Source: Pseudomonadota bacterium | GTDB taxonomy: Bacteria > Pseudomonadota > Gammaproteobacteria > UBA12402 | Length of the DNA stretch: 64,000 nt | Direction of reading: 5' to 3' | Assembly: GCA_038043025.1 (NCBI GenBank) | Contig: JBBTCW010000006.1 | Coordinates: 26,710-90,709 of the forward strand | Shown: positions 1-49,531 of the stretch, piece by piece | Position numbering within the stretch: the first letter of the stretch is position 1 | Layout: every line of letters begins with the position of its first letter | The notes under the pieces: model-generated | Databases searched by the model: none | Told to the model about the DNA's origin: nothing | Seen by the model: the letters and a program-made list of their open reading frames with translations, nothing else | Position numbers and translations under genes: made by a program

Positions 1-2
1 AT

Positions 3-551
3 ACCGATCGGGCGACGATTAAAGGTTGTTTAACCATGAATTTAAATTATATGATAGAGGCGTCGACAGGCTCCTTGGGGCATGGCTTACCGATCGCAGT
101 GGGGATGGCTCAGGCATTTAAAATGCAACGAATGGATAATAAAGTAATTTGCATTGTTGGCGATGGAGAGATGCAAGAAGGGAGTAATTACGAGGCACTT
201 CAGTTGGCCTATCGATTTAAACTGAACAATTTACTTATTATGGTGGATGCTAATAACTTGCAAGCGATGGATAGAGTTGAAGATGTGGCGCTTGATAATA
301 ATAAGCTGTCCAGTATTTTAAAAAATTATGTGAATCCTTGTGCGTTCCTGGATATTGATGGGCATAGCGAAAATGCATTACAGAAATCACTGAAACAGTT
401 TTTTCATTCACAAAACGATTCTTTTTCGATTATTTTTTGTAGAACGGTTAAGGGGAAAGGATTGTCGCTTATAGAAAATTCAATTAAACATCATTTTAGA
501 TGTCCTGTTGAAGATGGTTATCAAATAGAGGAATGTGAAGAAAATGTTTGA
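3..551 (+). CDS. Transketolase N-terminal (ThDP-binding) subunit, 5' end cut by the window edge
   Basis: ORF 36..551 stays open in frame back to base 3 with no stop. The GDGEMQEGSNYEAL ThDP-binding motif and a GSLGHGLP motif fit the transketolase N-terminal half. Confidence 0.7.
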   Translation, partial: TDRATIKGCLTMNLNYMIEASTGSLGHGLPIAVGMAQAFKMQRMDNKVICIVGDGEMQEGSNYEALQLAYRFKLNNLLIMVDANNLQAMDRVEDVALDNNKLSSILKNYVNPCAFLDIDGHSENALQKSLKQFFHSQNDSFSIIFCRTVKGKGLSLIENSIKHHFRCPVEDGYQIEECEENV

Positions 552-1035
552 AGAAACAGCGAGTAAGAACATATTGATGCAATCGCTTTACCCATATTTT
601 AAGTCAGATGAAAAGATGGCATTATTAGTTGGCGACATGGGGTTTGCGGTATTGGATGATTATTTTAATCATCATGCTGAACGAGTATTCAATATTGGGA
701 TTGCTGAGCAGGCGATGGTTAGTATGGCGGCCGGAATGGGGCTGGCCGGATTAAAGCCTATTATATATACACAGATACCGTTTTTGACCATGCGCGCTTT
801 CGAACAAATACGTTACGATATATGCGAACATAAATTGAATGTTAAGATGATTGGTATCGGCGCTGAAAATTATTTTAATGTGTTGGGGCGTAGTCATTGT
901 GTGGATGAAGATGATGTAAAAATTATGTCGATTTTTAAATCTTTATTAATTTTATTACCGACAGCTGCTACGATACAAGATGATTTGAAAAAATGTTTTG
1001 AGTATGATGGTCCGGTTTACATTCGTTGTAAATAA
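535..1035 (+). CDS. Transketolase C-terminal-subunit-like protein (pyrimidine-binding domain only, unusually short at 166 aa)
   Basis: Translation resembles the transketolase central pyrimidine-binding domain (GDMGFAVLDD, IAEQAMVSMAAGMGLAG). It overlaps the upstream tkt N-subunit gene by 17 nt. The gene is too short to include the usual C-terminal domain. Confidence 0.55.
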   Translation: MKKMFEETASKNILMQSLYPYFKSDEKMALLVGDMGFAVLDDYFNHHAERVFNIGIAEQAMVSMAAGMGLAGLKPIIYTQIPFLTMRAFEQIRYDICEHKLNVKMIGIGAENYFNVLGRSHCVDEDDVKIMSIFKSLLILLPTAATIQDDLKKCFEYDGPVYIRCK

Positions 1036-1098
1036 TATCGTGATTTACCAGAGCATCATCGTTTGAAAGATTAACCTTATAATTATCAGGGTGCGTGC

Positions 1099-2229
1099 AT
1101 GAGCAAATTAATGTTAGATGAGGAAAGCGAGTTAATATTAGATGGCTCTAAAATAATCTGGCATCAAGAGCGGTTAGAGCAATGGAAAAGAGGTGAGCGT
1201 TTTGCGCCGATCACTATTGACATGGCGTTGACTCAAGCTTGTCAATATAATTGTGAATTTTGCTATGCAAAATTACAACAAAATAAAGGTCATCGCATTA
1301 CGTTTGAGATCATGAAAAATTTTATCGATGATTGCGCCGAAATTGGGGTCAAAGCAATTAGTTTAGTCAGTGACGGAGAAAGTACCGCTAACCCTATTTA
1401 TCAGGATGTTATTGTTTATGGTCATGAAAAGGGGCTCTCTATGGCGTTAGGGACGCATGGGCATACACTGACGGAAGATGTGCTCGAAAAAATATTACCT
1501 GCGTTGACGTATATTCGTGTGAATTTTACAGCAGGTGAAGCGGATCGATACGCAAAAATACATGGTGTGCCCGAAAGTTATTTCTATGATGTTGTTGAGA
1601 ATATTAAGACAGCCATGCGGTTAAAGAAACAACATGGGTTAGATGTAACGATCGGCATGCAAATGGTGTTGATGCCTGAATATGCAGATCAAATTTTACC
1701 CTTGGCGAAGCTAGGAAAAGAAATTCGTCCGAATTATTTAGTTATTAAGCATTGTTCGGATGATGAAATGGGGTCTCTTGGCGTTAATTATGACGGATAT
1801 GAGCGGCTTTTTAATCTTTTAAAAGAAGCGGAAAGTTATACGGATGATGAATATTTGGTAAAGGTAAAATGGTCTAAGATTAAATCGGCAGGTAAGCGTT
1901 CATATAGTTGTTGTTATGGTCCGCCATTTCATTTGCAAATGTCCGGTTCTGGTTTGATCGCGCCATGCGGTAGTTTCTTTCATCCCCGATATGCAAGATA
2001 TCATATTGCGCATATTGATCAAGGAGACAGACTAAAAGATGTAGTGTTTAGTGATCGATACTGGGATGTCATGAATGAGTTAGCGTCAGAAAAATTTGAT
2101 GCTAAGACGATGTGTGCTGCGCTGTGTTTACAGCATAAGACAAATGAAGTTCTGGACGGCTATAAGAAAAATAAAATTTCCTTGGATAAGCCAACGGGTA
2201 AAAAACCACAACATATTGATTTTATTTGA
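1099..2229 (+). CDS. Radical SAM protein
   Basis: CQYNCEFCYA matches the CX3CX2C radical SAM cluster motif near the N-terminus. 376 aa, with GESTANP nearby. Confidence 0.6.
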   Translation: MSKLMLDEESELILDGSKIIWHQERLEQWKRGERFAPITIDMALTQACQYNCEFCYAKLQQNKGHRITFEIMKNFIDDCAEIGVKAISLVSDGESTANPIYQDVIVYGHEKGLSMALGTHGHTLTEDVLEKILPALTYIRVNFTAGEADRYAKIHGVPESYFYDVVENIKTAMRLKKQHGLDVTIGMQMVLMPEYADQILPLAKLGKEIRPNYLVIKHCSDDEMGSLGVNYDGYERLFNLLKEAESYTDDEYLVKVKWSKIKSAGKRSYSCCYGPPFHLQMSGSGLIAPCGSFFHPRYARYHIAHIDQGDRLKDVVFSDRYWDVMNELASEKFDAKTMCAALCLQHKTNEVLDGYKKNKISLDKPTGKKPQHIDFI

Positions 2230-2240
2230 TAAGGTGATGT

Positions 2241-3722
2241 ATGTTAATTGATAGTTGCGTGAATGTATTAGAAAATATAAAAAGCATCGCGGCTAGCCGA
2301 GATATTATCTTAATTTCGGGTAAATTTAACATATTACACCCCGGGCATATTCGCTTATTAAAATTTGCTAAGAGTTTGGGCGATTTTTTAGTGGTTGCTT
2401 TAGAGCCTGACATTTCCGATAAGACATTGTTGCCCTCGCATTTGCGATTGGAAGCCATTAATGCGACGCATTATGTCGATTATGCTTTTGTATTGCAGTC
2501 AAGCGCAACGGATTTTATTGCGGAATTAAGACCCCATATCGTTGTGAAAGGCAGCGAATTTGAGGCGAGACATAACCCTGAAGAAGCGGTGTTAGCTTCT
2601 TACGGGGGAAAATTGGTTTTTGGTTCGGGCGACATTCGATTTTCCTCCTTGGATTTATTAAAAAAAGAGTTCAGTCAATTTGAATTATCCACCATTGAGA
2701 AACCACTGGATTATCCGCGTCGACATAATTTTAATTTTAATGATTTAACGGCGCTTATTAATAAATTTTCTTCTCTGAATGTACTAGTGATTGGCGATAC
2801 GATTGTGGATGAATATGTGATGTGTGATCCGCTCGGCATGAGTCAAGAAGACCCCACGATTGTGGTCACCCCTATCTCATCGAATAAATTTTTGGGTGGC
2901 GCGGGTATTGTGGCGGCGCATGCGCGTGGATTAGGGGCTCATGTGAGCTTTTATTCGATATTGGGCGATGATCAATTATCTAACTTTGTCGAAGAAAAAA
3001 TGCAGGAATATCGTATTGATGCGCATTTATATACGGATAAAACAAGAGAAACTACGCATAAACAGCGTTTCCGAGCCAATGGCAAGACGTTATTAAGAGT
3101 CAACCGATTAAAACAGCATTATATCGATAATGAGTTGCAGGAAACAATACTTCAAGATATTCGCCATCATTTAGATAAAATAGATTTATTAATTTTTTCT
3201 GATTTTAGTTATGGCTGTTTACCAAAAAAATTGATTGCAAGTATATCGGCGCTTGCGTTAGAACATAATATTATTGTTACCGCAGATAGTCAGTCGTCTT
3301 CACAAATGGGGGATATTTCGCGGTTTAATAACATGTCATTGGTCACCCCGACAGAAAGAGAAATTCGATTGGCGGTGAAAGATTTTGAATCGGGATTAAT
3401 TGTGTTGGCGGATAAGTTGCGGCAGAAAATTCATCCGGCGAATATTGTTATTACGCTAGGCGCAGAAGGGATGATTATTAATGAGATGCGAGATCCCGCC
3501 GCTGACTTATTAACGGATCGATTGCCGGTGTTTAATAAAGCGCCCAAGGATGTCGCTGGCGGTGGCGATGCTTTGCTCGTCGGAACCTCGCTTGGGCTGG
3601 CGGCAGGCGCTGATATTTGGCAAAGCGCTTATGTCGGCGCACTTGTAGCGGCTTGTCAGGTGGGACGATTAGGAAACTTACCCTTGCAGCAAAAAGAAAT
3701 TCTAAAAGAGATCATGAGTTAA
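2241..3722 (+). CDS. Bifunctional cytidylyltransferase-like / pfkB-family sugar kinase (HldE-like domains in reversed order)
   Basis: N-terminus has the nucleotidyltransferase HxGH motif (GKFNILHPGHIRLL). C-terminal half is a pfkB carbohydrate kinase (LVIGDTIVDEY; DVAGGGDALL signature near the C-terminus). Confidence 0.6.
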   Translation: MLIDSCVNVLENIKSIAASRDIILISGKFNILHPGHIRLLKFAKSLGDFLVVALEPDISDKTLLPSHLRLEAINATHYVDYAFVLQSSATDFIAELRPHIVVKGSEFEARHNPEEAVLASYGGKLVFGSGDIRFSSLDLLKKEFSQFELSTIEKPLDYPRRHNFNFNDLTALINKFSSLNVLVIGDTIVDEYVMCDPLGMSQEDPTIVVTPISSNKFLGGAGIVAAHARGLGAHVSFYSILGDDQLSNFVEEKMQEYRIDAHLYTDKTRETTHKQRFRANGKTLLRVNRLKQHYIDNELQETILQDIRHHLDKIDLLIFSDFSYGCLPKKLIASISALALEHNIIVTADSQSSSQMGDISRFNNMSLVTPTEREIRLAVKDFESGLIVLADKLRQKIHPANIVITLGAEGMIINEMRDPAADLLTDRLPVFNKAPKDVAGGGDALLVGTSLGLAAGADIWQSAYVGALVAACQVGRLGNLPLQQKEILKEIMS

Positions 3723-4424
3723 ATGAAAGCGCTATTATTAGCCGCGGGCTTTGGTAATCGATTAAAGCCGATTACAGATTACATGCCAAAATGCTTGGTT
3801 CCTATCAATGGGAAACCATTATTAGCATATTGGATAGAAAATTTAGTCGCTGCGGGCGTTCAAGAAATATTAATTAACCTACATTATAAAGCTGACCAGG
3901 TTCAAGCGTTTGTTGATCATTCTCCCTATAAAACGATTATTAAAACCGTTTATGAAGAAGAATTATTGTTAACGGGCGGAACGTTACATAGGAATAGAAA
4001 TTTTTTTGGTCATGATGATGTGTTAATGGCGCATGCGGATAATCTTTGCATCTGTGATTTTAAAAAATTTATGCAAACTTATTATGACCGCCCAAAAAAT
4101 GTTGATATGACGATGATGACGTTCAACACGGATAATCCGACATCTTGCGGCGTCGTTGAATTAAATAATAATATTGTTGTTGGTTTTTATGAAAAGGTAA
4201 AAAATCCTCCCAGTCATTTAGCCAATGGCGCTGTATATATTCTTTCACAAGAGGTGTTGGGGTTTTTGGAAGGATTGGGCAAGGAAAAAATTGACTTTAG
4301 CACAGAAGTGATTCCTCATTTTCTAAATCGAATCAATACGTTTCATAACAGCATTTACCATCGAGATATTGGTACGCTAGAAAGTTACGCGCTGGCTCAA
4401 CTAGAGGTGGAAAAATTATTATGA
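3723..4424 (+). CDS. Sugar-phosphate nucleotidyltransferase (NTP-transferase family)
   Basis: LLAAGFGNRLKPIT is a GxGxRL pyrophosphorylase motif. 233 aa. Start abuts the upstream stop. Confidence 0.6.
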   Translation: MKALLLAAGFGNRLKPITDYMPKCLVPINGKPLLAYWIENLVAAGVQEILINLHYKADQVQAFVDHSPYKTIIKTVYEEELLLTGGTLHRNRNFFGHDDVLMAHADNLCICDFKKFMQTYYDRPKNVDMTMMTFNTDNPTSCGVVELNNNIVVGFYEKVKNPPSHLANGAVYILSQEVLGFLEGLGKEKIDFSTEVIPHFLNRINTFHNSIYHRDIGTLESYALAQLEVEKLL

Positions 4425-5719
4425 GCAGAAAAAGCTTTATGGTTGTTTTTAATGATGACCTTAATATTGGGAATTTTTCAGAAAACTTACATTATACGTT
4501 ATTTAAAGCTGAGCGATTAAACAAAAAGGTGAAGCTTATAAGAAAGCGCATGTTTTTTGAGAAGTTTTTGAAAAAAGTTTTTAATCGTAAGCAGCTTACG
4601 GGAGTATATCGATTACATGGAGCACTTATTGATTCTCATTATACGCTGATAGATAGAGCGCTAGAGTTATTTTATGGATTTTATTTTTGGAGTAATTTAA
4701 TTAGTCGAGCGATTTTGTGGAAGTTAAAAATTTTACGCAAATTGGAACTAAAAACGATAAGTCGTGGCGAGACAGATATATTTAATATTGAAAATAAAGG
4801 TATTTTTGATGTCGGTTCAATGGGTGCTGTTAATTGGTCATCGCTTTTGGAAAAAAAACAAGATTTATTTTTTTGTTCAAAAGATGAAAAAAAATGTCAG
4901 GAAAATTTACGACAATTAGGGGTTGGAGAAGGTCAATGGTATGTGTGTTTGCATATTAGAACTAGTTTTTATCATAGCAGTTATATGGATGAACATCGAA
5001 ATTCTAGTGTCGAGAATTATTTAGAAGCCATCAATTATATACATTCTTTAGGTGGTGTCGTAATTAGGTTAGGTGATCCCGTGTTCTTGGGCTATGAGGA
5101 CGCTTATATTGACTATCCTAATACCTCTTTTAAATCTGAATTAATGGATTTATTTTTAATAAAAAATTGTAGATTTTTTTGGGGAACAAATTCTGGAATT
5201 TTTGATACGGCTTTATTATTTGGTGTGCCGACACTGGCGGTTAATGTCTCTGATTTTTTGTTTATTCGTCCTTACAAATCGGCGGATAGGATAATCTATA
5301 AACCCATATTGTCGAGAGAAGAAGGGAAGATTATGTCATTTGAAGAGGTTTTTCGCCATACTGACAGCATTATGATGTCTAATATTGGATTGTCAGGCTT
5401 TGAAGCATTTGATAAAGATTACAAAATGGTGGAGAATACATCAGATGAAATCCGGCAAGTTATTGAGGAAATGTGCGTTGGATTTGAAAATGACTTGCCA
5501 GAAACCTATTTTCAACAGGCATTTAAAGCGCAATTAAACATAGCCGCTATTCGATGGGCGACTCAAAAATTTTCTGATCGTCATTTGAATAATGCTTATA
5601 GAATAGCGGCCAAGACATATTTCAGCGGTCGCATTGGTCGGCATTTTGCAGAAAAATATTTATATGGCACGCCGGATTTGCCGCATGACAAAGAGAGGTG
5701 TTATGAAGCTGAACAATAA
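4421..5719 (+). CDS. Hypothetical protein, possible GT-B-like glycosyltransferase of unknown family
   Basis: 432-aa ORF in operon context. C-terminal half (IRLGDP...NCRFFWGTNSGIFDTALLFGVPTLAVN) vaguely resembles GT-B nucleotide-binding domains. No firm motif. Confidence 0.3.
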   Translation: MSRKSFMVVFNDDLNIGNFSENLHYTLFKAERLNKKVKLIRKRMFFEKFLKKVFNRKQLTGVYRLHGALIDSHYTLIDRALELFYGFYFWSNLISRAILWKLKILRKLELKTISRGETDIFNIENKGIFDVGSMGAVNWSSLLEKKQDLFFCSKDEKKCQENLRQLGVGEGQWYVCLHIRTSFYHSSYMDEHRNSSVENYLEAINYIHSLGGVVIRLGDPVFLGYEDAYIDYPNTSFKSELMDLFLIKNCRFFWGTNSGIFDTALLFGVPTLAVNVSDFLFIRPYKSADRIIYKPILSREEGKIMSFEEVFRHTDSIMMSNIGLSGFEAFDKDYKMVENTSDEIRQVIEEMCVGFENDLPETYFQQAFKAQLNIAAIRWATQKFSDRHLNNAYRIAAKTYFSGRIGRHFAEKYLYGTPDLPHDKERCYEAEQ

Positions 5720-6713
5720 GAAAATATTAGTAACCGGTGCCGATGGTTTTATCGGCTCGCATTTAGTGGAACGTCTCATCGCATTAAATTATGATGTGCG
5801 GGCATTTGTTTTATATAATTCTTTTAATAGTTGGGGGTGGTTGGATGCTTTGCCGGCCGCCACTAAAAAGAATTTGGATGTGTTTGTCGGCGATGTGCGT
5901 GACCCAAATGGTGTGCGCCATGCCGTTAAAGATTGTCAAATTATCATGCATTTGGCTGCATTGATTGGTATTCCGTATTCGTATTATTCGCCGGATTCTT
6001 ACGTGGATACCAATATTAAAGGAACGTTAAATGTTTTGCAGGCGGCAAGAGACTCTGGCGTTGAAAAAATTATTCATACGTCAACGAGTGAGGTATATGG
6101 TACGGCGCAGTTCGTGCCGATCACAGAAGATCATCCTCTGCAAGGACAGTCGCCTTATTCTGCGACAAAAATTGGAGCGGATCAATTAGCGCTTTCTTTT
6201 TATAATGCATTTGATACGCCGGTGAGCGTGATTCGCCCTTTTAATACTTATGGGCCGCGTCAATCGGCGCGGGCAGTGATTCCGACGATTATTACGCAAG
6301 TGGCGGCAGGGACGAGTGAGATTAAATTAGGTGCTTTGTCGCCCACGCGAGATTTTAATTATGTGAGCGATACAGTAAATGCGTTTATTGCGATGGCGGA
6401 ATCTGATCGCGTGATGGGCGAAGTGGTGAATATTGGCAGTAATTATGAGATTTCCATTGAAGATCTGGTTAAGTTGATTGCTGCTTGTATGAATAAAAAA
6501 ATCACGTTGAGTGAGGATGCGCAGAGGATGCGGCCAAAAAAGAGTGAGGTAGAGCGATTATGGGCAGATAACGCTAAAGCAAAAGCATTATTAGATTGGA
6601 CACCGGCGTATGCTGGGTTAGAGGGGTTGCAGAAAGGGTTGCAAAGAACCATCGAATGGTTCTCGCATTCAGAAAATCTTAAGCATTATAAGTGTGGGAA
6701 ATATGTCGTTTGA
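5703..6713 (+). CDS. NAD-dependent NDP-sugar 4,6-dehydratase/epimerase (SDR, LegB/PseB-like)
   Basis: Start set at the ATG at 5703 (MKLNNKKILVTGADGFIGSHL, Rossmann GxxGxxG) after a GAGAGG RBS. YSATK catalytic YxxxK is present. Confidence 0.65.
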   Translation: MKLNNKKILVTGADGFIGSHLVERLIALNYDVRAFVLYNSFNSWGWLDALPAATKKNLDVFVGDVRDPNGVRHAVKDCQIIMHLAALIGIPYSYYSPDSYVDTNIKGTLNVLQAARDSGVEKIIHTSTSEVYGTAQFVPITEDHPLQGQSPYSATKIGADQLALSFYNAFDTPVSVIRPFNTYGPRQSARAVIPTIITQVAAGTSEIKLGALSPTRDFNYVSDTVNAFIAMAESDRVMGEVVNIGSNYEISIEDLVKLIAACMNKKITLSEDAQRMRPKKSEVERLWADNAKAKALLDWTPAYAGLEGLQKGLQRTIEWFSHSENLKHYKCGKYVV

Positions 6714-7890
6714 TCCTCGTTTATTTATTACAACGTTAAAAAATTGCTTGCCAAGCGCTCAGGCGAGTATTGCATTGCATGAACCGTTATTTGCTGGCAA
6801 TGAATGGCGTTATGTTAAAGAATGTTTGGATACTGGCTGGGTCTCTTCGGGTGGAAAATTTGTGGATCGATTTGAATATGATTTGGCAGCGTACACTGGC
6901 GCGAAACATTGTGTGGTTGCCGTGAATGGTACTGCGGCGTTGCATATTATTTTTTTGTTGGCGGGCATCAAGCCAAATGATGAAGTATTGGTGCCAGCCT
7001 TGACATTTATTGCCACCTGTAACGCGATCGCCTATTGTGGCGGCGTTTCTCATTTTATTGACAGTGAAGAATCTCATTTAGGCATCGATTTTAAAAAATT
7101 GGAACGTTATTTATCTGACATAACAGAAATCAAAGACAATGTTTGTTACAATAAATTAACTAAGCGGCCGATTCGTGCGTTATGTGTAATGCATACGTTT
7201 GGTCATCCCGTGGATTTAGATGCGGCGATGGCTTTATGTGATCGTTATCATTTGAAGTTGATTGAAGATGCGGCTGAAGCATTGGGTTCTTTTTATAAAG
7301 GTCAGCATGTGGGACATCATGGTTTTGCCGGGGCATTAAGTTTTAATGGAAATAAAATCATTACGACAGGTGGCGGCGGAGCAATCGTCACGGATGATGA
7401 AAGCGTGGCTAAAAAAGCGAAGCATATCACGACAACGGCCAAACTGCCGCATCATTGGAAATATGATTATGATTGCATCGGTTATAATTATCGCTTACCG
7501 AATATTAATGCGGCGCTGGGATGTGCGCAGTTAGAAAAACTACCTGAATTTCTGCAGAAAAAACGCCAACTGACAGAACGATATGAAAAAACATTTAAAC
7601 ATTATGATGGATGCCGGTTTATCGAAGAGCCGAAAGAGGCAAAAAGCAACTGTTGGTTAAATGCGATATTGTTGGACAATTCCAGCCAGCATCTTCGCAA
7701 TGATATTTTAGAATTAGCGATTAAAAATAATATTTTTTTGCGGCCGGTGTGGGAGTTGATGGATACATTGCCGATGTATCAACATTGTCCGCGCATGGAT
7801 TTGTCGGGGGCGAAAAGTATCGCTGCTCGATTAATTAATATTCCGAGCAGTGTTTGTTTAAGTGAGGAGCCGGCGTGCGAAAAATATTAG
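6694..7890 (+). CDS. DegT/DnrJ/EryC1/StrS-family PLP-dependent sugar aminotransferase
   Basis: Family-typical layout with SFNGNKIITTGGGGAIVT (PLP lysine), EDAAEALGS and CVMHTFGHP. Confidence 0.75.
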   Translation: MGNMSFDPRLFITTLKNCLPSAQASIALHEPLFAGNEWRYVKECLDTGWVSSGGKFVDRFEYDLAAYTGAKHCVVAVNGTAALHIIFLLAGIKPNDEVLVPALTFIATCNAIAYCGGVSHFIDSEESHLGIDFKKLERYLSDITEIKDNVCYNKLTKRPIRALCVMHTFGHPVDLDAAMALCDRYHLKLIEDAAEALGSFYKGQHVGHHGFAGALSFNGNKIITTGGGGAIVTDDESVAKKAKHITTTAKLPHHWKYDYDCIGYNYRLPNINAALGCAQLEKLPEFLQKKRQLTERYEKTFKHYDGCRFIEEPKEAKSNCWLNAILLDNSSQHLRNDILELAIKNNIFLRPVWELMDTLPMYQHCPRMDLSGAKSIAARLINIPSSVCLSEEPACEKY

Positions 7891-9023
7891 TCATGACCTG
7901 CGCGCGCTCCGACTACGGGTTGTTGTATGGGTTGATGCGAGAGATACAGCAAGATTCATCGCTGCAATTGCAAATAGTGGTGATGGGGATGCATCTCGAA
8001 GAGAAATTTGGATTGACCTATAAGCAAATTTTAAAAGATGGTTTTAAGATTGATGCCAAAGTGAAAATGAATTTATCCTCTGATAAAGAGGAGACGGTTG
8101 CTAAGGCCGTTAGTTTAGGAGTGGCCGGTTGCGCAAAAGCCTATAAGAAATTAAAGCCCGATATTATTGTATTATTGGGCGATCGATTTGAAACATTTGC
8201 GGCCGCCAGTGCGGCACTGTTTATGCGGATTCCGATTGCGCATATTCATGGTGGCGAAGTCACGGAAGGGGCTTATGATGATGCTGTTCGGCATGCGATT
8301 ACTAAAATGGCGCATTGGCATTTTGTGGCGCATAAACAATATGCGAAGCGCGTTGTTCAATTAGGTGAAAATCCTAATCGAGTATTCTGCGTGGGGGCGG
8401 TGGGCTTGGATTCTATTAAGCGGACAAAACTATTGGACAAAAACGAACTCGAGAGGCAGCTGGGGTTTTCCATTAATAACAATACAGCGTTAGTGACGTA
8501 TCATCCGGTGACGCTAGAAAAGAGTATGGCTGCGCGCCATATTAAGTCTTTATTAAAGGCATTGGAACAATTTAATTTTCAATATATTTTTACGATACCC
8601 AATGCCGATGCCGAGAATACAAAAATTTTTAAAGCATTAAAAAGATTTATGCAGCGACATCCATCGGCGAAAATTTATGCCTCGCTGGGGACTCAGAAAT
8701 ATTTTTCTTTAATGAAATATGCGGGGTTAATGATCGGTAATTCATCGAGTGGCGTGATCGAAGCGCCATCGTTTAAGTTGCCCGTTGTCAATATTGGTTC
8801 GCGACAAATAGGGCGGTTGATGTTTGATAATGTTATTAATTGTTCTGATGATGCAGGTTTGATACAAAGAGCTATTAAAAAAGCACTGTCAATATCTTTT
8901 CGAGAAAAATGTCGGCAGCTTAAAAAAAGTGATTTGGATCAAGGGAGTACGAGTAAGAAAATTAAGAACCTTTTAAAAAGAGTAACATTGAGTGATTTGG
9001 TAAAAGGTTTTTATGACTTATAA
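7875..9023 (+). CDS. UDP-N-acetylglucosamine 2-epimerase (hydrolysing), NeuC/LegG-like
   Basis: N-terminus MRKILVMTCARSDYGLL and LLGDRFE are characteristic of NeuC-type hydrolysing 2-epimerases. Confidence 0.7.
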   Translation: MRKILVMTCARSDYGLLYGLMREIQQDSSLQLQIVVMGMHLEEKFGLTYKQILKDGFKIDAKVKMNLSSDKEETVAKAVSLGVAGCAKAYKKLKPDIIVLLGDRFETFAAASAALFMRIPIAHIHGGEVTEGAYDDAVRHAITKMAHWHFVAHKQYAKRVVQLGENPNRVFCVGAVGLDSIKRTKLLDKNELERQLGFSINNNTALVTYHPVTLEKSMAARHIKSLLKALEQFNFQYIFTIPNADAENTKIFKALKRFMQRHPSAKIYASLGTQKYFSLMKYAGLMIGNSSSGVIEAPSFKLPVVNIGSRQIGRLMFDNVINCSDDAGLIQRAIKKALSISFREKCRQLKKSDLDQGSTSKKIKNLLKRVTLSDLVKGFYDL

Positions 9024-9036
9024 TGGGGGTGCGAAA

Positions 9037-10110
9037 ATGGCCAAGACAATAATTATTGCTGAAGCGGGTGTTAATCATAATGGATCGTTAGATTTGGCTT
9101 TTGAATTGATTGATCAAGCCGTGGCAGTTGGTGCTGATATCGTCAAATTTCAAGCCTTTAATTCTTCTCAGATTGTTACTCAATCTTTATCTAAGGCATC
9201 TTATCAAAAAGTAAATACAGGTGGACAAGATTCGCAGTTGGCCATGTTGAAAAAATTGGAATTAAGTCGCGCGGATCATGAGCGGCTCATCGAGCATTGT
9301 CAAAAAAAATCCATTAAATATTTATCATCAGTTTTTGATCTGCAAAGTTTGAATGATTTGGTTAATTATTTTGGCATTACCGAGGTCAAACTGGGTTCTG
9401 GTGAGATAACGAATGGTCCTTTATTACTAAAAATAGCGCAATTGCAATGTGATGTTATCTTATCAACGGGCATGTGTGATTTGGTAGATATTCAGCGGGC
9501 ATTAAGTATTTTGGCTTTTGGGTATTTGGATAGAAGCGAATATCCAACCAGAGCGACTTTTGAAGCGGCTTTTAATTCCGTAGAGGCACAGAAAATTTTA
9601 AAAGAGAAGGTTGTTTTATTGCATTGCACAACAGCCTATCCTGCGCCCATAAACGATATTAATCTGTATGCGATGGATACTATGCGCAATACTTTTTTGT
9701 TGCCGGTAGGCTATTCAGATCATTCATTGGGGATTAATATAGCTATTGCTGCAGTTGCGCGTGGTGCGATTATGCTTGAAAAACATTTTACGCTAGATAA
9801 AAATTTACCCGGACCCGATCATAAAGCATCGCTTGATCCTCGAGAGTTTGCTCGAATGGTGACGGCTATCAGAGAAGTGGAGGTCGCGTTGGGTAATGCA
9901 GAAAAAAAAGTTACCCCGTCAGAGCTTGATCATTTTGATATTGTGCGCAAGCATTTGGTTGCGGCTCAAACGATCAAGAAAGGTGAAAAATTCACCGAGC
10001 GCAATATTGCAGTTAAGCGTTCGCAAGGGAAAATATCTCCAATATATTTCTGGGAGATTCTGGGAGAGACCGCCGACAAAGATTATGTCATTGATGATGT
10101 TATATCATGA
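9037..10110 (+). CDS. N-acylneuraminate (nonulosonic acid) synthase, NeuB/LegI-like
   Basis: IIIAEAGVNHNGSLDLAFELID is the NeuB-type PEP-condensing TIM-barrel N-terminus. A C-terminal SAF-like domain is present. Start taken at the second ATG, which has a GGGGG RBS; the ORF could start at 9013. Confidence 0.75.
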   Translation: MAKTIIIAEAGVNHNGSLDLAFELIDQAVAVGADIVKFQAFNSSQIVTQSLSKASYQKVNTGGQDSQLAMLKKLELSRADHERLIEHCQKKSIKYLSSVFDLQSLNDLVNYFGITEVKLGSGEITNGPLLLKIAQLQCDVILSTGMCDLVDIQRALSILAFGYLDRSEYPTRATFEAAFNSVEAQKILKEKVVLLHCTTAYPAPINDINLYAMDTMRNTFLLPVGYSDHSLGINIAIAAVARGAIMLEKHFTLDKNLPGPDHKASLDPREFARMVTAIREVEVALGNAEKKVTPSELDHFDIVRKHLVAAQTIKKGEKFTERNIAVKRSQGKISPIYFWEILGETADKDYVIDDVIS

Positions 10111-10935
10111 GTTTTTTGTAAATACTCTAAAGAGTAAGGGTGAATAGTTTCCAATAGCTGGCGGGAATGCCGCATCGAGAAATTTCACAAATTCAGTGTT
10201 TCTGATAGGCGCATTTTCTGGTCGTAGAGATTCATGCAATACTCTTGCCGTAAAATAGTGGGTGGATAAATAATTTTGAGGTATTGAAGTATTTATTTCG
10301 GTAAACCCTGTATTTTTCATTTCATCTATAATAGATTCGCTTAAATAATTATTATGATATGCTGGTTTCATTTCCGTTAGGCATAGTTCTTGCTGTGCTT
10401 TATTTAAGTTGACCAAGGGTTCGATAAAGGATTCTATCATGATGAAGATGCCATCTGTGTTCAAAATAGTATATATTTTTTCAATTGCCGTTATTTGATC
10501 TTCCTTAGAGAGTAGATTGATTAAGACTCTTTCGGAAATCACTATATCAAAAGAATTTGGCTTGAAGTTATCTTTCCTGCAGTCGTCTTGAATGAGTTGA
10601 ACATTTTTTAATGTTCTTTCGCTGGCTAATTTATATAATTCTTTATTGAATTCTAATCCATGAAATTTGAAGTCAGGATATCTTGCGGATAATTGCGACA
10701 AGAGATAGCCATTTCCACAACCCACATCTAATATGGTTAGATTTTTATCTTGTTTTTTATACGTCTTGTCTATTGTGTTAAAAATAAATTCAATTTCTTT
10801 ATCTCGTATAAAAATATCATGCATAGTGGATTCTTTTGAGCTGCCCTTGTTGGTTGCTTCTTTGTTATAATGTGTTTGAATAACATCATGAGGGTTCATA
10901 ATATTCCTTTTGATAAGAGTTTGATGAAAGGACAA
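10105..10935 (-). CDS. Class I SAM-dependent methyltransferase
   Basis: ILDVGCGNGYLLSQL glycine-rich motif I. 276 aa on the minus strand. Confidence 0.6.
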   Translation of the reverse strand: MSFHQTLIKRNIMNPHDVIQTHYNKEATNKGSSKESTMHDIFIRDKEIEFIFNTIDKTYKKQDKNLTILDVGCGNGYLLSQLSARYPDFKFHGLEFNKELYKLASERTLKNVQLIQDDCRKDNFKPNSFDIVISERVLINLLSKEDQITAIEKIYTILNTDGIFIMIESFIEPLVNLNKAQQELCLTEMKPAYHNNYLSESIIDEMKNTGFTEINTSIPQNYLSTHYFTARVLHESLRPENAPIRNTEFVKFLDAAFPPAIGNYSPLLFRVFTKNS

Positions 10936-11059
10936 GATTATTCAGATTATTGTAGCGATTGATATTGCTAATACAAGAAAAATATAGGGCGTTAAGGAGG
11001 GTAAGGGCCGCATTTGTTCATATTTTGAACACGTTATTATTAGTTGTTGCAAATGCTTT

Positions 11060-12190
11060 ATGGTAATATACATCCTCAAATCGGTTGCCATTGCTGGTAG
11101 CGGAGATGGGTCGATTAATATTCTTGTGAGGTTGTTTGTGTACGATGTAGAATGGAAAAAACTTTTAGTTAATCCAGATTGTACATTAGAAAACGCCATT
11201 CGCGTGATTAATCAGGGTGCTTTGGGCACCGTGTTTGTTGTCGATCATGATTTAAAATTATTGGGTGTAGTGACGGATGGCGATGTGCGTCGTGGTTTAT
11301 TGCGACATGTTACGCTGGATCAGCCTGTTTTTTCCGTGATGAATGATCAGCCGAGGATGGCCATGCGCAATATAGATGTTGCCGAATTGATTACCATGAT
11401 GGAAGAACAGTCGATACGTTGTGTGCCGATTGTGGATGAAAATCAATGCATGATTGACGTAGAAATTTCACCGTATTTGCGTCGCGAGGCTAAAAATACG
11501 AATTGGGTGTTTTTAATGGCCGGTGGTTTTGGCACGCGATTAAAGCCATTAACCGACGATTGCCCGAAGCCATTATTGAAAATTGGCGGGCGTCCCGTTT
11601 TAGAAAATATTATTCAACAGTTTAAATTGAATGGGTTTCAGAAATTTTTTATGTCCGTTCATTATAAATTGAATATGGTGAAAAGTTATTTTGGTACGGG
11701 GGAACAGTTTGGCGTTGATATTAAATATCTTGAGGAAGAGGAGCCGTTGGGGACGGGTGGATCATTGGGCTTGTTACCCGAAATATCCCAGCCTTTAATC
11801 GTGATGAATGCCGATGTGTTAACGAAGGTGAATTTTCGTCAATTATTACAGTTTCATCTGGATTCAAAAGCTGCAGTGACGATGTGTGTGCGTGAATATG
11901 GTATGCAGGTGCCTTATGGTACCGTTCAGATCGATGGGCATGTTGTCACAGAAATTATTGAAAAACCCTCGTATCAATTTTTTATTAATGCGGGTATTTA
12001 TGTGTTATCGCCGGATGTCGTTAATGGGATTCAGGGAAAAAATAATTTTGATATGCCAACATTATTTAATCGGTTGATTCAAGAAGGCAAGACCGTAGTG
12101 ACCTTTCCCATACATGAATATTGGTTGGATATGGGCAAGATGGAAGATTTTAAACGTGCGCAAATAGATATTTCACCCTTTGTATCATGA
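11060..12190 (+). CDS. CBS-domain-containing sugar-phosphate nucleotidyltransferase (PtmE-like)
   Basis: N-terminal CBS-pair-like region, then an NTP-transferase domain (MAGGFGTRLKPLT, GxGxRL). This architecture is known from legionaminic acid pathways. Exact start uncertain. Confidence 0.6.
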   Translation: MVIYILKSVAIAGSGDGSINILVRLFVYDVEWKKLLVNPDCTLENAIRVINQGALGTVFVVDHDLKLLGVVTDGDVRRGLLRHVTLDQPVFSVMNDQPRMAMRNIDVAELITMMEEQSIRCVPIVDENQCMIDVEISPYLRREAKNTNWVFLMAGGFGTRLKPLTDDCPKPLLKIGGRPVLENIIQQFKLNGFQKFFMSVHYKLNMVKSYFGTGEQFGVDIKYLEEEEPLGTGGSLGLLPEISQPLIVMNADVLTKVNFRQLLQFHLDSKAAVTMCVREYGMQVPYGTVQIDGHVVTEIIEKPSYQFFINAGIYVLSPDVVNGIQGKNNFDMPTLFNRLIQEGKTVVTFPIHEYWLDMGKMEDFKRAQIDISPFVS

Positions 12191-13197
12191 TAGAAACCAT
12201 ACACAAACCCGTCATATTAGTTGTCGGTCTGGGCAGTATCGGCAAGCGGCATGTGAAAAATCTTCGTGCACTTTTTCCTGATGCGTATATGGTTGTGTGT
12301 CGACATGCGCCGACGGAGCATGATCAAGATTTTGTGACGCAATATATTGATAAAGTTGTGTATGATCTGAATGAAGCGATTGCGTTAAAACCGATGGCAG
12401 CTATTTTGTGCAATCCGGCGGTTTATCATGTTTCGATTGCACTGCAATTGGCAAAAAATGACATTCATCTGTTTATTGAAAAGCCGTTGTCGAATACGTT
12501 AACAGATGTGGAAGCTCTCATTACTCTATGTCGTCAGAAAAAATTAGTGTTCATGGTGGGTTATAATCTTCGCTTTTCAAAGACATTAGATCGCGCGAGG
12601 GAACTCATAAAGCGCGGAGCAATCGGTGATATCCTGTCTGCGCAGGTCAATACAGGGCAATATTTACCGGATTGGAGGCCGGGTGCTGATTATCGAAAAA
12701 CCGTGTCAGCGCAACAGAAAATGGGCGGCGGTGTTTTGTTAGAACTCAGTCATGAGTTAGATTATATGTGTTGGTTATTGGGCAAGCCTGTCGAGGTTTT
12801 TGCGCGATTGACCTCGAGTGGTTCATTGGAGATTGATGTAGAAGATAATGCGGATGTCTTTTTAACGTTTCAAAAGAATTTAATGGTGAGTATTCATCTT
12901 GATATGTTACAGCGTACCGCTTGTCGCCAGTGTAAGGTTGTGGGTGCGTTGGGTACAATAATTTGGGATGGTGTTGAAGATAAACTCATTGTTCAGTCTG
13001 AAAAACAAGAATTTTCGCAGAGTTTTTGCGGGGCAGAGGATAAAAATGAAATGTATAAACGAGAAATAAAACATTTTTTTGATTCTATTCGTAAAGGATC
13101 TCCTGCTATGGTTACAGGGGTTGATGCGTTGGAGAGTTTAAAGATTGTGTTGGCTGCAAGAAAATCAAATCAAACACGAGAAATTGTGCCATTATGA
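12187..13197 (+). CDS. Gfo/Idh/MocA-family NAD(P)-dependent oxidoreductase
   Basis: ILVVGLGSIGKRH Rossmann N-terminus; EKPL motif. Confidence 0.6.
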   Translation: MIETIHKPVILVVGLGSIGKRHVKNLRALFPDAYMVVCRHAPTEHDQDFVTQYIDKVVYDLNEAIALKPMAAILCNPAVYHVSIALQLAKNDIHLFIEKPLSNTLTDVEALITLCRQKKLVFMVGYNLRFSKTLDRARELIKRGAIGDILSAQVNTGQYLPDWRPGADYRKTVSAQQKMGGGVLLELSHELDYMCWLLGKPVEVFARLTSSGSLEIDVEDNADVFLTFQKNLMVSIHLDMLQRTACRQCKVVGALGTIIWDGVEDKLIVQSEKQEFSQSFCGAEDKNEMYKREIKHFFDSIRKGSPAMVTGVDALESLKIVLAARKSNQTREIVPL

Positions 13198-13895
13198 AAG
13201 CGTTGAATTGTTTTGCATTTATTTTTGCGCGAGGAGGCTCGAAAGGCATTCCGCGAAAAAATATTACATTGTTAAATGGCAAACCATTGATTGCATATTC
13301 GATCGAAACCGCGTTAGCCTGTCCATCGATTAGTCGTGTCATAGTGTCGACCGATGACGAGGAGATTGCATTGGTTGCTAGGCAGTATGGCGCAGAAGTG
13401 CCTTTTATGAGACCAAAAGAATTGGCGCAAGATAATAGTTCAGAGTGGCAAGCGTGGCAACATGCGATTCGGTTTATGCAGAAATGCGATGCATTTGATG
13501 TGTTTGTGAGCTTGCCTGCAACGGCGCCTTTGCGAAATGTAGAGGATGTGGAAAAATGTATTAACCTTTTATCACATGCAGATACCGATATTGTCGTGAC
13601 CGTTAAGCCAGCAGAGCGTAATCCCTATTTTAATATGGTGAAGGTTGATCGTGATGGTTTTTCGCATTTGGTTTGCAAAGGAGATGATGTCGTTTATAAT
13701 CGTCAAGTGGCGCCGATGCTTTACGATATGACGACGGTGGCTTATGTGGCAAAGCCGGATTTTATATTGAACGCGACCAGTATATTTGAAGGGCGTGTTC
13801 GTTCGGTCGTTGTTCCCGCCGAAAGAGCCATTGATATTGATACGCCATTTGATTTAAAAATAGCAGACATGTTAATGAAGGAGTCTGTGCAATGA
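13194..13895 (+). CDS. Acylneuraminate cytidylyltransferase (CMP-nonulosonic acid synthetase, NeuA/LegF-like)
   Basis: IFARGGSKGIPRKNI is typical of CMP-NeuAc/CMP-Kdo synthetase-type cytidylyltransferases. 233 aa. Confidence 0.7.
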   Translation: MKALNCFAFIFARGGSKGIPRKNITLLNGKPLIAYSIETALACPSISRVIVSTDDEEIALVARQYGAEVPFMRPKELAQDNSSEWQAWQHAIRFMQKCDAFDVFVSLPATAPLRNVEDVEKCINLLSHADTDIVVTVKPAERNPYFNMVKVDRDGFSHLVCKGDDVVYNRQVAPMLYDMTTVAYVAKPDFILNATSIFEGRVRSVVVPAERAIDIDTPFDLKIADMLMKESVQ

Positions 13896-14689
13896 CGATA
13901 CATGAACAGATGAGTTTAGCCGGTCGTGTGGCATTGATTACGGGTGGTGCGGGACATGTTGGGCGCATGGCCGCCGACATATTAGCAGAGCTAGGTTCAC
14001 ATATTGTTATATTGGATAATGATCGAAAGGCGGCAGAAACGGTTGCGCAAGCCATTCAAGAAAAATATGCTGTGCAAAGCATTCCTATTGTAGTGGATTT
14101 AGAAGAAGATAATTTTGTTTTAAACGTGATGCCGGTGATTCAAAAAAAATTCGGACGTTTAGATATTTTAATTAATAATGCGGCGTTTACGGGCGTTTCT
14201 GGTTTAAAAGGTTGGGCAGTTGGTTTTAAGGAACAGCATGTGGATACTTGGCGTCGTGCATTGGAAGTGAATTTAACAGCGCCATTTGCATTGATCCAGT
14301 CTTGTGTTGATTTGTTAAAAGCGAGCAAAGGTGTTGTCATTAATATGGGTTCAATTTATGGAGTGTTAGGCCCTGATATGAATTTGTATCAAGGAACGAG
14401 CATGGGCAACCCTGCCGCTTATGCAGCCAGCAAAGGTGGATTGCTTCAGTTGACGCATTGGTTAGCCACTGTTTTAGCGCCCGATATTCGTGTTAATATG
14501 ATTTCGCCGGGTGGGATTTTTCGCCATCAGCCGAAAGATTTTTGTGAGCGTTATATCCAAAAGACGCCTTTAAAAAGAATGGCGACGGAAGAAGATTTAA
14601 AAGGAGCCATTGCTTATTTTGCAACGGATTTATCGCTGTATGTGACGGGACAAAATTTATTGGTGGATGGTGGTTGGACAGCTTGGTAA
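13892..14689 (+). CDS. Short-chain dehydrogenase/reductase (SDR)
   Basis: ITGGAGHVGR Rossmann motif, NNAA motif and YAASK catalytic YxxxK. Confidence 0.65.
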   Translation: MTIHEQMSLAGRVALITGGAGHVGRMAADILAELGSHIVILDNDRKAAETVAQAIQEKYAVQSIPIVVDLEEDNFVLNVMPVIQKKFGRLDILINNAAFTGVSGLKGWAVGFKEQHVDTWRRALEVNLTAPFALIQSCVDLLKASKGVVINMGSIYGVLGPDMNLYQGTSMGNPAAYAASKGGLLQLTHWLATVLAPDIRVNMISPGGIFRHQPKDFCERYIQKTPLKRMATEEDLKGAIAYFATDLSLYVTGQNLLVDGGWTAW

Positions 14690-21909: not shown

Positions 21910-23238
21910 ATGACTAAAGCAGATCAATTAAAACAAGAAATACTCGATAAAGTGGCGGAGTATTATCAGTATGCTTTTAATCAAGCGCCCAAGCAGAATC
22001 GCATCTCTTATGCGGGTCGTGTGTTTGATGAGCGGGAAATGTTGAATTTAGTGGACGCATCGCTAGAGTTTTGGTTGACGGAAGGGCGATACGCGCAAGC
22101 ATTTGAAAAGAAATTCTCTGGCTTTTTAAACGTTAAATATACCGCATTAGTTAATTCAGGTTCTTCGGCTAATTTGCTTGCCTTTGCAACGTTGACATCA
22201 CCTTTGTTAAAGGATCGACAAGTTTTACCAAAGGATGAAATCATTACGATTGCGGCTGGGTTTCCGACAACAGTGACCCCTATTATTCAATATGGCGCGA
22301 CACCTGTTTTTGTCGATGTTGTATTAGCCGATGGGACGTACAATGTTGATTGTGCGCAATTAGAACAGGCGTTGTCAAATAAAACTAAAGCAGTGATGTT
22401 GGCGCATACATTAGGGAATCCATTTGATTTATCAAAAGTATTGGGGTTTTGTCAGAAAAATAATCTATGGTTAATTGAAGATAATTGTGATGCGCTTGGC
22501 TCTAAATATAATGGAAAATATACAGGAACTTTTGGCGATATTGCTACTAGTAGTTTTTATCCGCCGCATCATATTACCATGGGCGAAGGCGGCGCGGTTT
22601 ATACGAATAATCCATTGCTAAATAAGATTATGCGTTCCATGCGTGATTGGGGGCGTGATTGCTATTGTCATTCAGGCAAAGATAATAGCTGTGGAAAGCG
22701 ATTTGGGCAGCAACATGGCGAGTTACCTTATGGGTATGATCATAAATACGTGTATTCACATTTTGGTTATAACCTCAAGGCGACTGATTTGCAGGCAGCG
22801 ATTGGTTGTGCGCAATTAGAAAAATTAGATGGCTTTATAAAACGGCGTCGAGAAAGTTGGCAATATTTGAGAGATGCGCTGTCGATGTTTGATAAATATT
22901 TTATTTTGCCTAATGCAACGCAGAAGAGTGAGCCAAGTTGGTTTGGTTTCTTGATGACGGTTAAAGAAAACGTCGGCTTTTCGCGCGCAGACATGGTGAC
23001 TCATTTAGAAGAACACAATATTCAAACGCGCATGTTGTTTGCAGGGAATTTAATTCGCCATCCTTGTTTTGATCAGCTGAGAGCAAAAGGAGTCGACTAT
23101 CGAGTGATCGGAAATTTAAAAAACACCGATGATATTATGAATAACACTTTCTGGATTGGCGTGTATCCGGGATTAGGTAAAGCGCAGCTGGATTATATGA
23201 TTCAAACGATTTCGCAATTTATCCAATCCATCCAATAG
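21910..23238 (+). CDS. rfbH: CDP-6-deoxy-D-xylo-4-hexulose-3-dehydrase (E1, DegT-fold PMP/[2Fe-2S] enzyme)
   Basis: 442-aa DegT-fold protein with a clustered cysteine motif WGRDCYCHSGKDNSCGKRFG, typical of the E1 iron-sulfur site. Size and N-terminus fit RfbH/DdhC. Confidence 0.7.
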   Translation: MTKADQLKQEILDKVAEYYQYAFNQAPKQNRISYAGRVFDEREMLNLVDASLEFWLTEGRYAQAFEKKFSGFLNVKYTALVNSGSSANLLAFATLTSPLLKDRQVLPKDEIITIAAGFPTTVTPIIQYGATPVFVDVVLADGTYNVDCAQLEQALSNKTKAVMLAHTLGNPFDLSKVLGFCQKNNLWLIEDNCDALGSKYNGKYTGTFGDIATSSFYPPHHITMGEGGAVYTNNPLLNKIMRSMRDWGRDCYCHSGKDNSCGKRFGQQHGELPYGYDHKYVYSHFGYNLKATDLQAAIGCAQLEKLDGFIKRRRESWQYLRDALSMFDKYFILPNATQKSEPSWFGFLMTVKENVGFSRADMVTHLEEHNIQTRMLFAGNLIRHPCFDQLRAKGVDYRVIGNLKNTDDIMNNTFWIGVYPGLGKAQLDYMIQTISQFIQSIQ

Positions 23239-28286: not shown

Positions 28287-28290
28287 GTCG

Positions 28291-29496: not shown

Positions 29497-29514
29497 GATA
29501 GAGGGTTATATAAA

Positions 29515-31227: not shown

Positions 31228-31269
31228 AAAGTAATTTAGTTTTTAAAAATTTATAATTAGGAGGGAATC

Positions 31270-33772: not shown

Positions 33773-34250
33773 TACAATAAAAAAACATATTTTTAACGAA
33801 CGATTTTCTAAATTCTTTTTAATCGGCATTTGGAACGCGGCATTTGGTGTCGGTGTTTTTTCCTTATTATATTATTGGTTTCATCAATATGTTAATTATA
33901 TGATTTTAGTGATCATCACTAATATTTTAGCCATTACTAATGCATATATCTGTTATAAGTTAGTTGTTTTTAAGACGAAGGGCAACTATGTTAAGGAGTA
34001 TTTAAGGTTTTATATCGTGTACGGTTTTGCATTTGCTGTGAGTTTATTGCTTTTCCCGCTTTTTATGGAAGTGGTCTTTCCTTTTTTGGCAGCGCATATG
34101 CCAAATTATTATGGTATCTTTAATTACAAGGCTTATTTGTCGCAACTTGTCATTACTAGTATCACCATGTTTGTCAGTTATTTTGGGCATCTTAAGGTTT
34201 CTTTTCGTGAGGAAGCCTCTTCAGAGGTGTTGCCCGATGGAGAAGGTTGA
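33744..34250 (+). CDS. GtrA-family small membrane protein
   Basis: 168 aa with about 4 TM helices (FLIGIWNAAFGVGVF...). Positioned after a GtrB-like gene. Confidence 0.55.
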   Translation: MKGSGLILINTIKKHIFNERFSKFFLIGIWNAAFGVGVFSLLYYWFHQYVNYMILVIITNILAITNAYICYKLVVFKTKGNYVKEYLRFYIVYGFAFAVSLLLFPLFMEVVFPFLAAHMPNYYGIFNYKAYLSQLVITSITMFVSYFGHLKVSFREEASSEVLPDGEG

Positions 34251-49452: not shown

Positions 49453-49531
49453 GCGAAAGTCGCTATTAATTGCCTGATTAAAGGTGGCTTTGCCTGGTGA
49501 ATTATCCCAAATAGATAGAGGCAGAAAGATA

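Follow-up and report, generated by a model that had tools for sequence, protein, structure and literature searches.

We analysed a 64,000-nucleotide (nt) stretch of DNA from a Pseudomonadota bacterium (Gammaproteobacteria, UBA12402; contig JBBTCW010000006.1), hereafter the window, whose first six genes encode a two-subunit transketolase-like enzyme, a radical S-adenosylmethionine (SAM) enzyme, a nucleotidyltransferase–kinase fusion, a second nucleotidyltransferase and a glycosyltransferase. This part of the window is most likely the downstream portion of a widespread, apparently uncharacterised gene cassette. On balance, we favour the reading that the cassette, comprising window positions 1-5719 and three genes upstream, produces a modified heptose in nucleotide-activated form and attaches it to a glycan of the cell surface in which legionaminic acid is also present. 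The role of the transketolase-like pair in this process is probably to supply a keto-sugar nucleotide with a two-carbon unit rather than to build the sugar backbone. An ADP-heptose-like product is suggested because the cassette combines a GmhA-like gene, domains whose nearest structures are HldA, HldC and HddC, and a glycosyltransferase that models with a GT9-like fold; the same features support the nucleotide-activated heptose-type sugar proposed in a preliminary description of this DNA, which had been made from its letters and open reading frames (ORFs).

A conserved activation core with reversed domain order

The fusion begins with an HldC-like nucleotidyltransferase domain (approximately amino acids (aa) 18-145) and continues into an HldA-like PfkB kinase domain (approximately aa 172-491), reversing the order of HldE, in which the kinase is N-terminal and the nucleotidyltransferase C-terminal. 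Pfam positions and alignments to Protein Data Bank structures (HldC 5x9q at aa 20-143, HldA 4e84 at aa 175-486) agree on the reversal that the preliminary description had reported, and, as CTP_transf_like precedes PfkB, its own caveat of an ordinary HldE with the order misread falls away. Scores lie below each HldE equivalog cut-off (NF008454, 159 against 521 bits; TIGR02198, 197 against 345; TIGR02199, 66 against 181), and the catalytic motifs H33-P-G-H36, G219 (of a GG pair) and D437-V-A-G-x-G-D443 are invariant among 15 cross-phylum homologues. The reversed fusion is common, not an exception: over 6000 database proteins have this architecture, 712 representative clusters match at E < 1e-30, and at least 564 species genomes spread over many phyla hold relatives, with 52-58% identity across phyla within the window's clade. 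No Rosetta-stone joining of the fusion to an NTP_transferase or SIS domain was found among 150 representative clusters.

The preliminary description placed a nucleoside diphosphate (NDP)-sugar pyrophosphorylase after the fusion, and the gene there does encode an NTP_transferase, which is HddC-like. Its best structural matches are Yersinia pseudotuberculosis HddC (6jq8 and 5xhw, 87 bits; next match 62 bits), and it scores 72 bits against the HddC equivalog NF049965, for which the cut-off is 300. We compared 77 non-redundant genome loci (L007-L089; L-numbers denote compared loci, and L001-L006 the assemblies carrying the window's own locus). The NTP_transferase gene directly follows the fusion in 72 of the 77, and the two proteins are equally conserved across them, each at about 53% identity (NTP_transferase median 53%). 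Since the fusion clusters by taxonomy and not by tailoring module, the two enzymes apparently make one constant product that is variously modified; co-diversification of the fusion with the tailoring module was tested and is ruled out by the same clustering.

A candidate for the isomerase of heptose synthesis, the gmhA whose presence elsewhere in the genome had been left to be checked, lies 2.4 kb upstream of the window (L001:5961-6536). It encodes a 191-aa SIS_2 protein with GmhA as its best family match, retaining the metal-site histidines H61 and H180, the phosphate-site serines S119, S121 and S124, and N52-S55 relative to Escherichia coli GmhA and carrying E65D and Q172E in 29 of 29 family members; it scores 109 bits against TIGR00441 (cut-off 209).

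A transketolase-like pair lacking the aldose-phosphate site

The complete α-subunit gene encodes 273 aa (L001:8632-9453), its first 270 nt lying upstream of the window. The preliminary description took this subunit to be truncated; its frame is open to base 3 and the gene is intact at 273 aa in six assemblies, cut only by the window edge. The protein scores 200 bits against the NCBIfam transketolase cut-off of 488, its best structure is the N-chain of a split transketolase (6yak, 135 bits), and the closest structure to the pair is the split transketolase of Carboxydothermus hydrogenoformans. The β-subunit is, as had been described, a Pyr domain alone, but the length of 166 aa given for it requires a start at GTG 535, whereas gene callers use ATG 544, which yields 163 aa. 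Its match in the 341-aa split transketolase C-chain 6yaj covers residues 48-190, and it ends at 'GPVYIR', corresponding to about residue 519 of E. coli TktA and to the end of the Pyr domain; the next gene follows after a mere 63 nt, so that no remnant of the C-terminal domain is present. The pair thus departs from the three-domain architecture (PP, Pyr and C-terminal domain) of transketolases.

Short β-subunits of about 164 aa, ending two residues past an invariant Arg, occur in 10 genome and 79 metagenome loci, with a median length of 164 aa among 71 complete metagenome copies, and radical SAM genes accompany the short form in 33 of the 36 loci with enough flanking sequence. The 163-aa Pyr-only subunit is a natural form and represents a distinct subfamily, which we name TK-S. 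A housekeeping split transketolase, shortened by the sequencing frameshift that the preliminary description had entertained and lying beside a normal HldE, would fit the membership of these sequences in the transketolase and HldE superfamilies; this account is already refuted and keeps almost no probability, given that an identical 163-aa subunit is found in six assemblies and at nearly the same length in metagenomes, that active-site changes run through the subfamily (described below, with Cys100 in 67 of 67 metagenome partners), that over 150 representative clusters show the reversed order of the fusion's domains, and that the genes lie within a glycan locus of at least 64 kb.

The pair retains the cofactor residues GDG...N, H26, H66, H261 and E411 in the window and in 28 genome and 67 metagenome partners, which answers in the affirmative the preliminary question of whether the short subunit keeps its contacts with thiamine diphosphate (ThDP), and the window β-subunit also has the equivalents of D381, F437 and H473. 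The aldose-phosphate site, formed in transketolase by R358, S385, H461, D469 and R520, has, by contrast with these cofactor residues, lost S385 (to Ala or Gly), H461 (to Gly) and D469 (to Leu) in all 26 Pyr subunits examined; R358 is Lys in the window subunit and is present in the long variant, and the terminal Arg is retained. In transketolase, His100 and His473 bind the donor hydroxyl group. The position of TktA His100 is Cys in the α partners at 10 of 10 genome and 67 of 67 metagenome loci, H473 is kept and the adjacent Q474 is Cys, leaving the His pair for the donor C1 hydroxyl incomplete. Because this donor-hydroxyl His is Cys, the donor is probably non-hydroxylated and pyruvate-like. An engineered transketolase, H102L/H474S, gains the use of pyruvate through changes at the positions of His100 and His473, and activity on the tested non-phosphorylated aldoses was highest with S385D/H462I/R521H (PMC11997939).

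Three cysteines are specific to the short subfamily, at TktA positions 100, 151 (native Ala151) and 474 (window 27-29, ~150-152 and ~897-899), and are absent from long-subunit relatives. A sister metagenome-assembled genome (MAG; L010, MGXQ01000012.1, ~5-10 kb) carries the same cassette with a fusion 89% identical to that of the window, a full-length 305-aa C-subunit, His at TktA position 100 and an additional RmlD-like gene; since a close relative holds the long, His-containing form in the same cassette, ThDP/transketolase modules are exchanged between close relatives.

Related cassettes indicate what the pair may do. In L095, a YerE-like ThDP enzyme takes the place of the pair, beside an SDR (short-chain dehydrogenase/reductase) and a radical SAM enzyme that are 62% and 64% identical to those of the window's cassette, and in L066 an E1α/β pair occupies the same place. 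YerE-like and E1-type ThDP enzymes branch NDP-keto-sugars (PMC9306805, PMC12247030), so that the interchange in L095 offers, by analogy, the strongest argument that the transketolase-like pair would act as a carboligase of the same type. The pair also co-travels with NDP-sugar C4-oxidising SDRs. Carboligation on a keto-sugar is suggested by the retention of the cofactor residues, the loss of those for the aldose phosphate and the replacement of the pair by YerE-like or E1 enzymes in orthologous cassettes; decoration of an existing sugar nucleotide is more likely than backbone building.

The preliminary description had instead assigned the backbone to ketol transfer, which the altered residues (including His100 to Cys), the enzyme replacements and the accompanying C4-oxidising SDRs make the less likely role. 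In its full form, the pair would transfer a two-carbon unit to an aldose phosphate, giving an unusual heptulose or octulose phosphate that the GmhA-like protein would isomerise before activation along the lines of the lincosamide octose route, which proceeds through a transaldolase, isomerase, kinase, phosphatase and nucleotidyltransferase. We consider this scheme unlikely, although several observations speak for it. The GmhA-like gene is found at 27 of 35 loci with a ThDP enzyme and at 0 of 16 without one (p = 1e-7), and does not track the fusion, which would fit a role at the sugar-phosphate stage and counts against the pathway that we favour; the GmhA-like protein has phosphate-binding serines, R358 persists in the long transketolase variant, and one class of cassette (type II, below) has its own HAD phosphatase and APH-type kinase beside the transketolase. 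Set against these are the loss of H461, D469 and S385 throughout the Pyr subunits, exchange of the ThDP enzyme with YerE-like and E1 types known only for NDP-keto-sugar branching (PMC12247030, PMC9306805), the lack of co-variation between the fusion and module type, and the constant presence of NDP-sugar-type SDRs with the module.

A bolder extension of the carboligation reading, which we put forward tentatively and regard as less probable than the pathway as a whole, is that TK-S could be a new class of ThDP enzyme working with two radical SAM enzymes on ADP-heptose and yielding a hitherto undescribed family of C9 branched or extended heptoses on the flagella or lipopolysaccharide (LPS) of hundreds of species, both environmental and host-associated; its three cysteines might then provide redox or acyl-transfer chemistry foreign to transketolases.

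Organization and distribution of the cassette

The ORF list places six co-directional, nearly contiguous genes on the plus strand; for the first five, positions and Pfam and NCBIfam domains match the preliminary assignments. Upstream in the same unit lie three genes, for the GmhA-like SIS_2 protein, a SPASM-type radical SAM enzyme and a GalE/UXS-like SDR. The two transketolase-like genes have 8 nt in common, the TAA of the fusion runs straight into the ATG of the NTP_transferase gene, and an ATGA belongs to both the NTP_transferase and the glycosyltransferase gene; these junctions point to co-translation of the cassette genes.

Table 1. Cassette genes within the window
Feature	Position (nt)	Strand	Basis or remark
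Transketolase-like α (ThDP/PP-domain) subunit, 3' two-thirds, 182 codons	1..551	+	Transketolase_N PF00456, 5e-15
Transketolase-like β subunit, Pyr domain only, 163 aa	544..1035	+	Transket_pyr PF02779, 3e-13, sole Pfam domain
Radical SAM enzyme, 376 aa	1099..2229	+	Pfam Radical_SAM and auxiliary-cluster cysteine set
Bifunctional nucleotidyltransferase-kinase fusion	2241..3722	+	CTP_transf_like aa 25-107, PfkB aa 181-478
HddC-like sugar-phosphate nucleotidyltransferase, 233 aa	3723..4424	+	Pfam NTP_transferase, 3e-29
TIGR04372-family glycosyltransferase, GT9-like fold	4421..5719	+	Beyond the part covered by the preliminary description (1-4424)

The locus is present in six independent assemblies (L001-L006), L001 being a Hainich groundwater metagenome contig, and its nearest relatives are two MAGs labelled 'Gammaproteobacteria bacterium RIFCSP..._42', whose fusions are 87-89% identical to that of the window. 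The gene order is repeated in Campylobacterota, Gammaproteobacteria, Syntrophia, Negativicutes and many metagenome contigs, an arrangement far beyond chance.

Tailoring modules and their enzymes across related loci

In the radical SAM enzyme encoded in the window, the CX3CX2C cysteines (C48, C52 and C55) and the auxiliary cysteines C219, C272, C290, C339 and C343 are invariant, and many of its homologues carry a precomputed PF13186 (SPASM) match. Its model (pLDDT, the predicted local distance difference test, 91) most resembles BlsE and DesII, two enzymes whose substrates are sugar nucleosides or nucleotides, and this fold likeness suggests that the window enzyme probably acts on a sugar nucleotide too. 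It differs from the decarboxylase BlsE and the deaminase/dehydrogenase DesII in sharing only 14-16% identity with them and in its pattern of auxiliary cysteines. The window and upstream radical SAM enzymes are paralogues at 25% identity. Elsewhere in the window, at 26104-32820, four radical SAM genes stand in a row (one SPASM, one Fer4_12 and two B12-binding) with a GT2 gene among them; none of the four is a close paralogue of the cassette enzyme. The upstream SDR, of 330 aa, is nearest to C4-oxidising UDP-sugar 4-epimerases and UDP-glucuronate decarboxylase. The TIGR04372 glycosyltransferase models as a GT9 heptosyltransferase-like fold and is, by that model, the probable transferase of the cassette product.

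The surroundings of the core vary between loci. The module of the window's cassette comprises SIS, radical SAM, SDR, the transketolase-like α-subunit, the short β-subunit and a radical SAM enzyme. A second type (type II) has a full-length β-subunit, an RmlB-like dehydratase, a HAD protein, an APH-type kinase, a methyltransferase and a zinc alcohol dehydrogenase. E1α/β and YerE-like enzymes mark a third type, of which the Rhodopseudomonas palustris HaA2 copy lies between flagellin genes, and in a fourth kind the tailoring genes are limited to C-methyltransferases, cupins and reductases. Reversed fusions at a greater distance (25-28% identity), among them that of L095, adjoin SIS, SDR, ThDP and radical SAM genes without an NTP_transferase. 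At type II loci (L026:6771-7394, L032:9154-10206), the HAD-like protein and the APH-family kinase are always paired directly after the long C-subunit; the HAD-like protein was considered as a candidate GmhB and proved not to be GmhB-like, and Pfam and NCBIfam searches with it and with the accessory proteins c74, s120 and s139, which are small and conserved, gave no match.

Some of these modules bear on a teichoic-acid-like alternative, in which the core would make a CDP-linked ketose or alditol phosphate (compare CDP-ribitol and CDP-6-glucitol), the cytidylyltransferase-like domain acting on a terminal phosphate and reductases finishing the product. In 28 of the 77 loci, the gene immediately before the fusion encodes a zinc alcohol dehydrogenase, C-methyltransferases occur at some loci without an obvious 4,6-dehydratase, and TagD shares the Pfam family of the fusion's N-terminal domain. 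The dehydrogenase, however, is nearest to class III alcohol dehydrogenases and not to polyol-phosphate dehydrogenases, the window's cassette has no such reductase, and the kinase domain is nearest to an anomeric kinase. We regard this scheme as very improbable and set it aside mainly on the GT9-like fold of the transferase.

A proposed pathway and its difficulties

From domain identities, catalytic residues, gene linkage and fold likeness, we infer the following substrates and order of steps for the favoured heptose pathway. The GmhA-like isomerase would convert sedoheptulose-7-phosphate into an aldoheptose-7-phosphate (step 1), which the PfkB domain of the fusion would phosphorylate at O-1 (step 2). 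Removal of the 7-phosphate would fall to a phosphatase that is not encoded here, so that either a host enzyme or retention of the phosphate is assumed (step 3). The HldC-like N-terminal domain of the fusion would then form ADP- or CDP-heptose, with the HddC-like enzyme performing a second nucleotidyl transfer (step 4). On this sugar nucleotide, the SDR and radical SAM enzymes would create a keto or deoxy centre (step 5), to whose carbonyl the two-subunit, two-domain transketolase-like enzyme, with ThDP, would add a two-carbon unit (step 6), and the GT9-like TIGR04372 enzyme would transfer the product (step 7).

Besides the tracking of the ThDP enzyme by the GmhA-like gene, several points weigh against this pathway. 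Searches by tblastn over the 64-kb window and the 9 kb before it detected no GmhB-type phosphatase, the gmhB that the preliminary description had named beside gmhA. All the heptose-pathway domains score under their NCBIfam equivalog cut-offs, and the pathway does not account for two nucleotidyltransferases in one core. The motif (F/L)xxGxSTT is reported for heptose nucleotidyltransferases (PMC11461863); it aligns to GDIRFSSL in the fusion, where F134, S135 and S136 are invariant in the family. Finally, the literature searched yielded no characterised member of the cassette and no glycan structure from a carrier organism.

The surrounding glycan locus

The cassette glycosyltransferase gene is followed by a complete legionaminic-acid set, with LegB, LegC, NeuC/LegG and NeuB/LegI all above their NCBIfam cut-offs. 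The same part of the window (5634-14689) also encodes a CBS-NTP_transferase (PtmE-like), a GFO/IDH/MocA oxidoreductase, a CMP-sugar synthetase and an SDR, with one methyltransferase gene on the opposite strand, and on the minus strand at 23202-24731 a gene for a 509-aa protein with a NeuB and a Cupin_2 domain is a second nonulosonic-acid-synthase-like gene.

This neighbourhood raises the alternative that the cassette decorates the adjacent nonulosonic acid (legionaminic or pseudaminic), for example by building an uncommon substituent of acyl or glycosyl type, instead of yielding a heptose residue in its own right. In at least 14 of the 77 genome loci, counting the window, a NeuB, NeuC or CMP-synthetase gene is no more than 10 kb away; L096 adjoins an island for Maf-type flagellin glycosylation; on plasmid pDCAR1, pse genes are interspersed with a transketolase pair, reversed fusion, SIS and radical SAM genes; and the extra active-site cysteines of TK-S could support oxidative acyl transfer. 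Most loci, however, have no nonulosonic-acid genes nearby, N-acylation needs no sugar kinase, two nucleotidyltransferases or GT9-like transferase, and the cassette contains no conserved acyltransferase or carrier protein, so that we judge this decoration improbable.

Further into the window, at 34247-39878, lies a second sugar C-branching module with a YerE-like ThDP enzyme (36% identical to that of R. palustris), an epimerase, a NUDIX hydrolase and two DegT aminotransferases, resembling an E1/DegT/NUDIX set on an Azospirillum oryzae plasmid. A Schlafen/AlbA_2-HATPase_c_4 protein and an ATPase_2/AAA protein (49484-50950 and 60005-61432) are encoded within the polysaccharide locus. GC skew is positive (0.10-0.29) over the 64 kb, and nearly all genes are on the plus strand. 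The window in its entirety is a single, very large region for glycan biosynthesis, extending over at least 64 kb.

Comparison with known systems

The ADP-heptose pathway (GmhA, HldE or HldA plus HldC, GmhB and HldD, with the GT9 enzymes WaaC, WaaF and TibC) shares with the cassette a GmhA-like protein, HldA- and HldC-like domains and a transferase modelled with a GT9-like fold. The cassette differs in its reversed domain order, sub-cut-off scores, FSS in place of STT and the GmhA changes E65D and Q172E; it has neither GmhB nor HldD, possesses an extra NTP_transferase, and resides in variable glycan islands rather than in LPS-core loci. To the pathway for GDP-D-glycero-α-D-manno-heptose as well as 6-deoxyheptose (GmhA, HddA, GmhB, HddC, DmhA and DmhB) it is linked by the NTP_transferase, whose nearest structures are HddC, and by the RmlB-like dehydratase and second SDR of related cassettes, which recall DmhA and DmhB. 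Unlike that pathway, the cassette has no GHMP kinase, and the SDR of the window's cassette is GalE/UXS-like and not a dehydratase.

YerE/YerF and the E1-type αKADH2 attach acyl branches to NDP-4-keto-deoxy-sugars, as in yersiniose, erwiniose, aldgamycin and kibdelomycin (PMC9306805, PMC12247030). Enzymes of these kinds occupy the position of the transketolase-like pair in orthologous cassettes, and NDP-sugar oxidoreductases stand alongside both. The pair is set apart by its place in the transketolase superfamily, with two domains on two chains, and by its presumed acceptor, a heptose in place of a 3,6-dideoxyhexose. Split-gene transketolases have been proposed to transfer a hydroxyacetyl group in miharamycin and amipurimycin, where an adjoining oxidoreductase is proposed to make the keto-sugar acceptor; according to the same 2025 review, no transketolase-type enzyme with a ketone acceptor has been characterised, and the 13 putative sequences all come from Streptomyces (PMC12247030). 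Compared with these Streptomyces enzymes, by description only, TK-S lacks the C-terminal domain, has Cys at TktA positions 100, 151 and 474 and resides in surface-glycan loci of many non-actinobacterial phyla.

Literature searched for this gene combination contained no description of the cassette. A conserved activation core of a reversed HldE-like fusion and an HddC-like enzyme, often followed by a GT9-like transferase, feeds many tailoring modules across phyla, and its sugars are likely antigenic determinants on flagella or LPS and could be immune agonists of the ADP-heptose type. The cassette further offers hundreds of natural candidates for ketone-acceptor transketolases, with a clear active-site signature and cultivable hosts; cultivable carriers of the cassette include Arcobacter sp. 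FWKO B, R. palustris HaA2 and Herbaspirillum sp. GW103. What is new here is thus a variant that combines NDP-heptose tailoring with ThDP-dependent sugar branching, both of already known kinds, in a form that is widespread and experimentally tractable.

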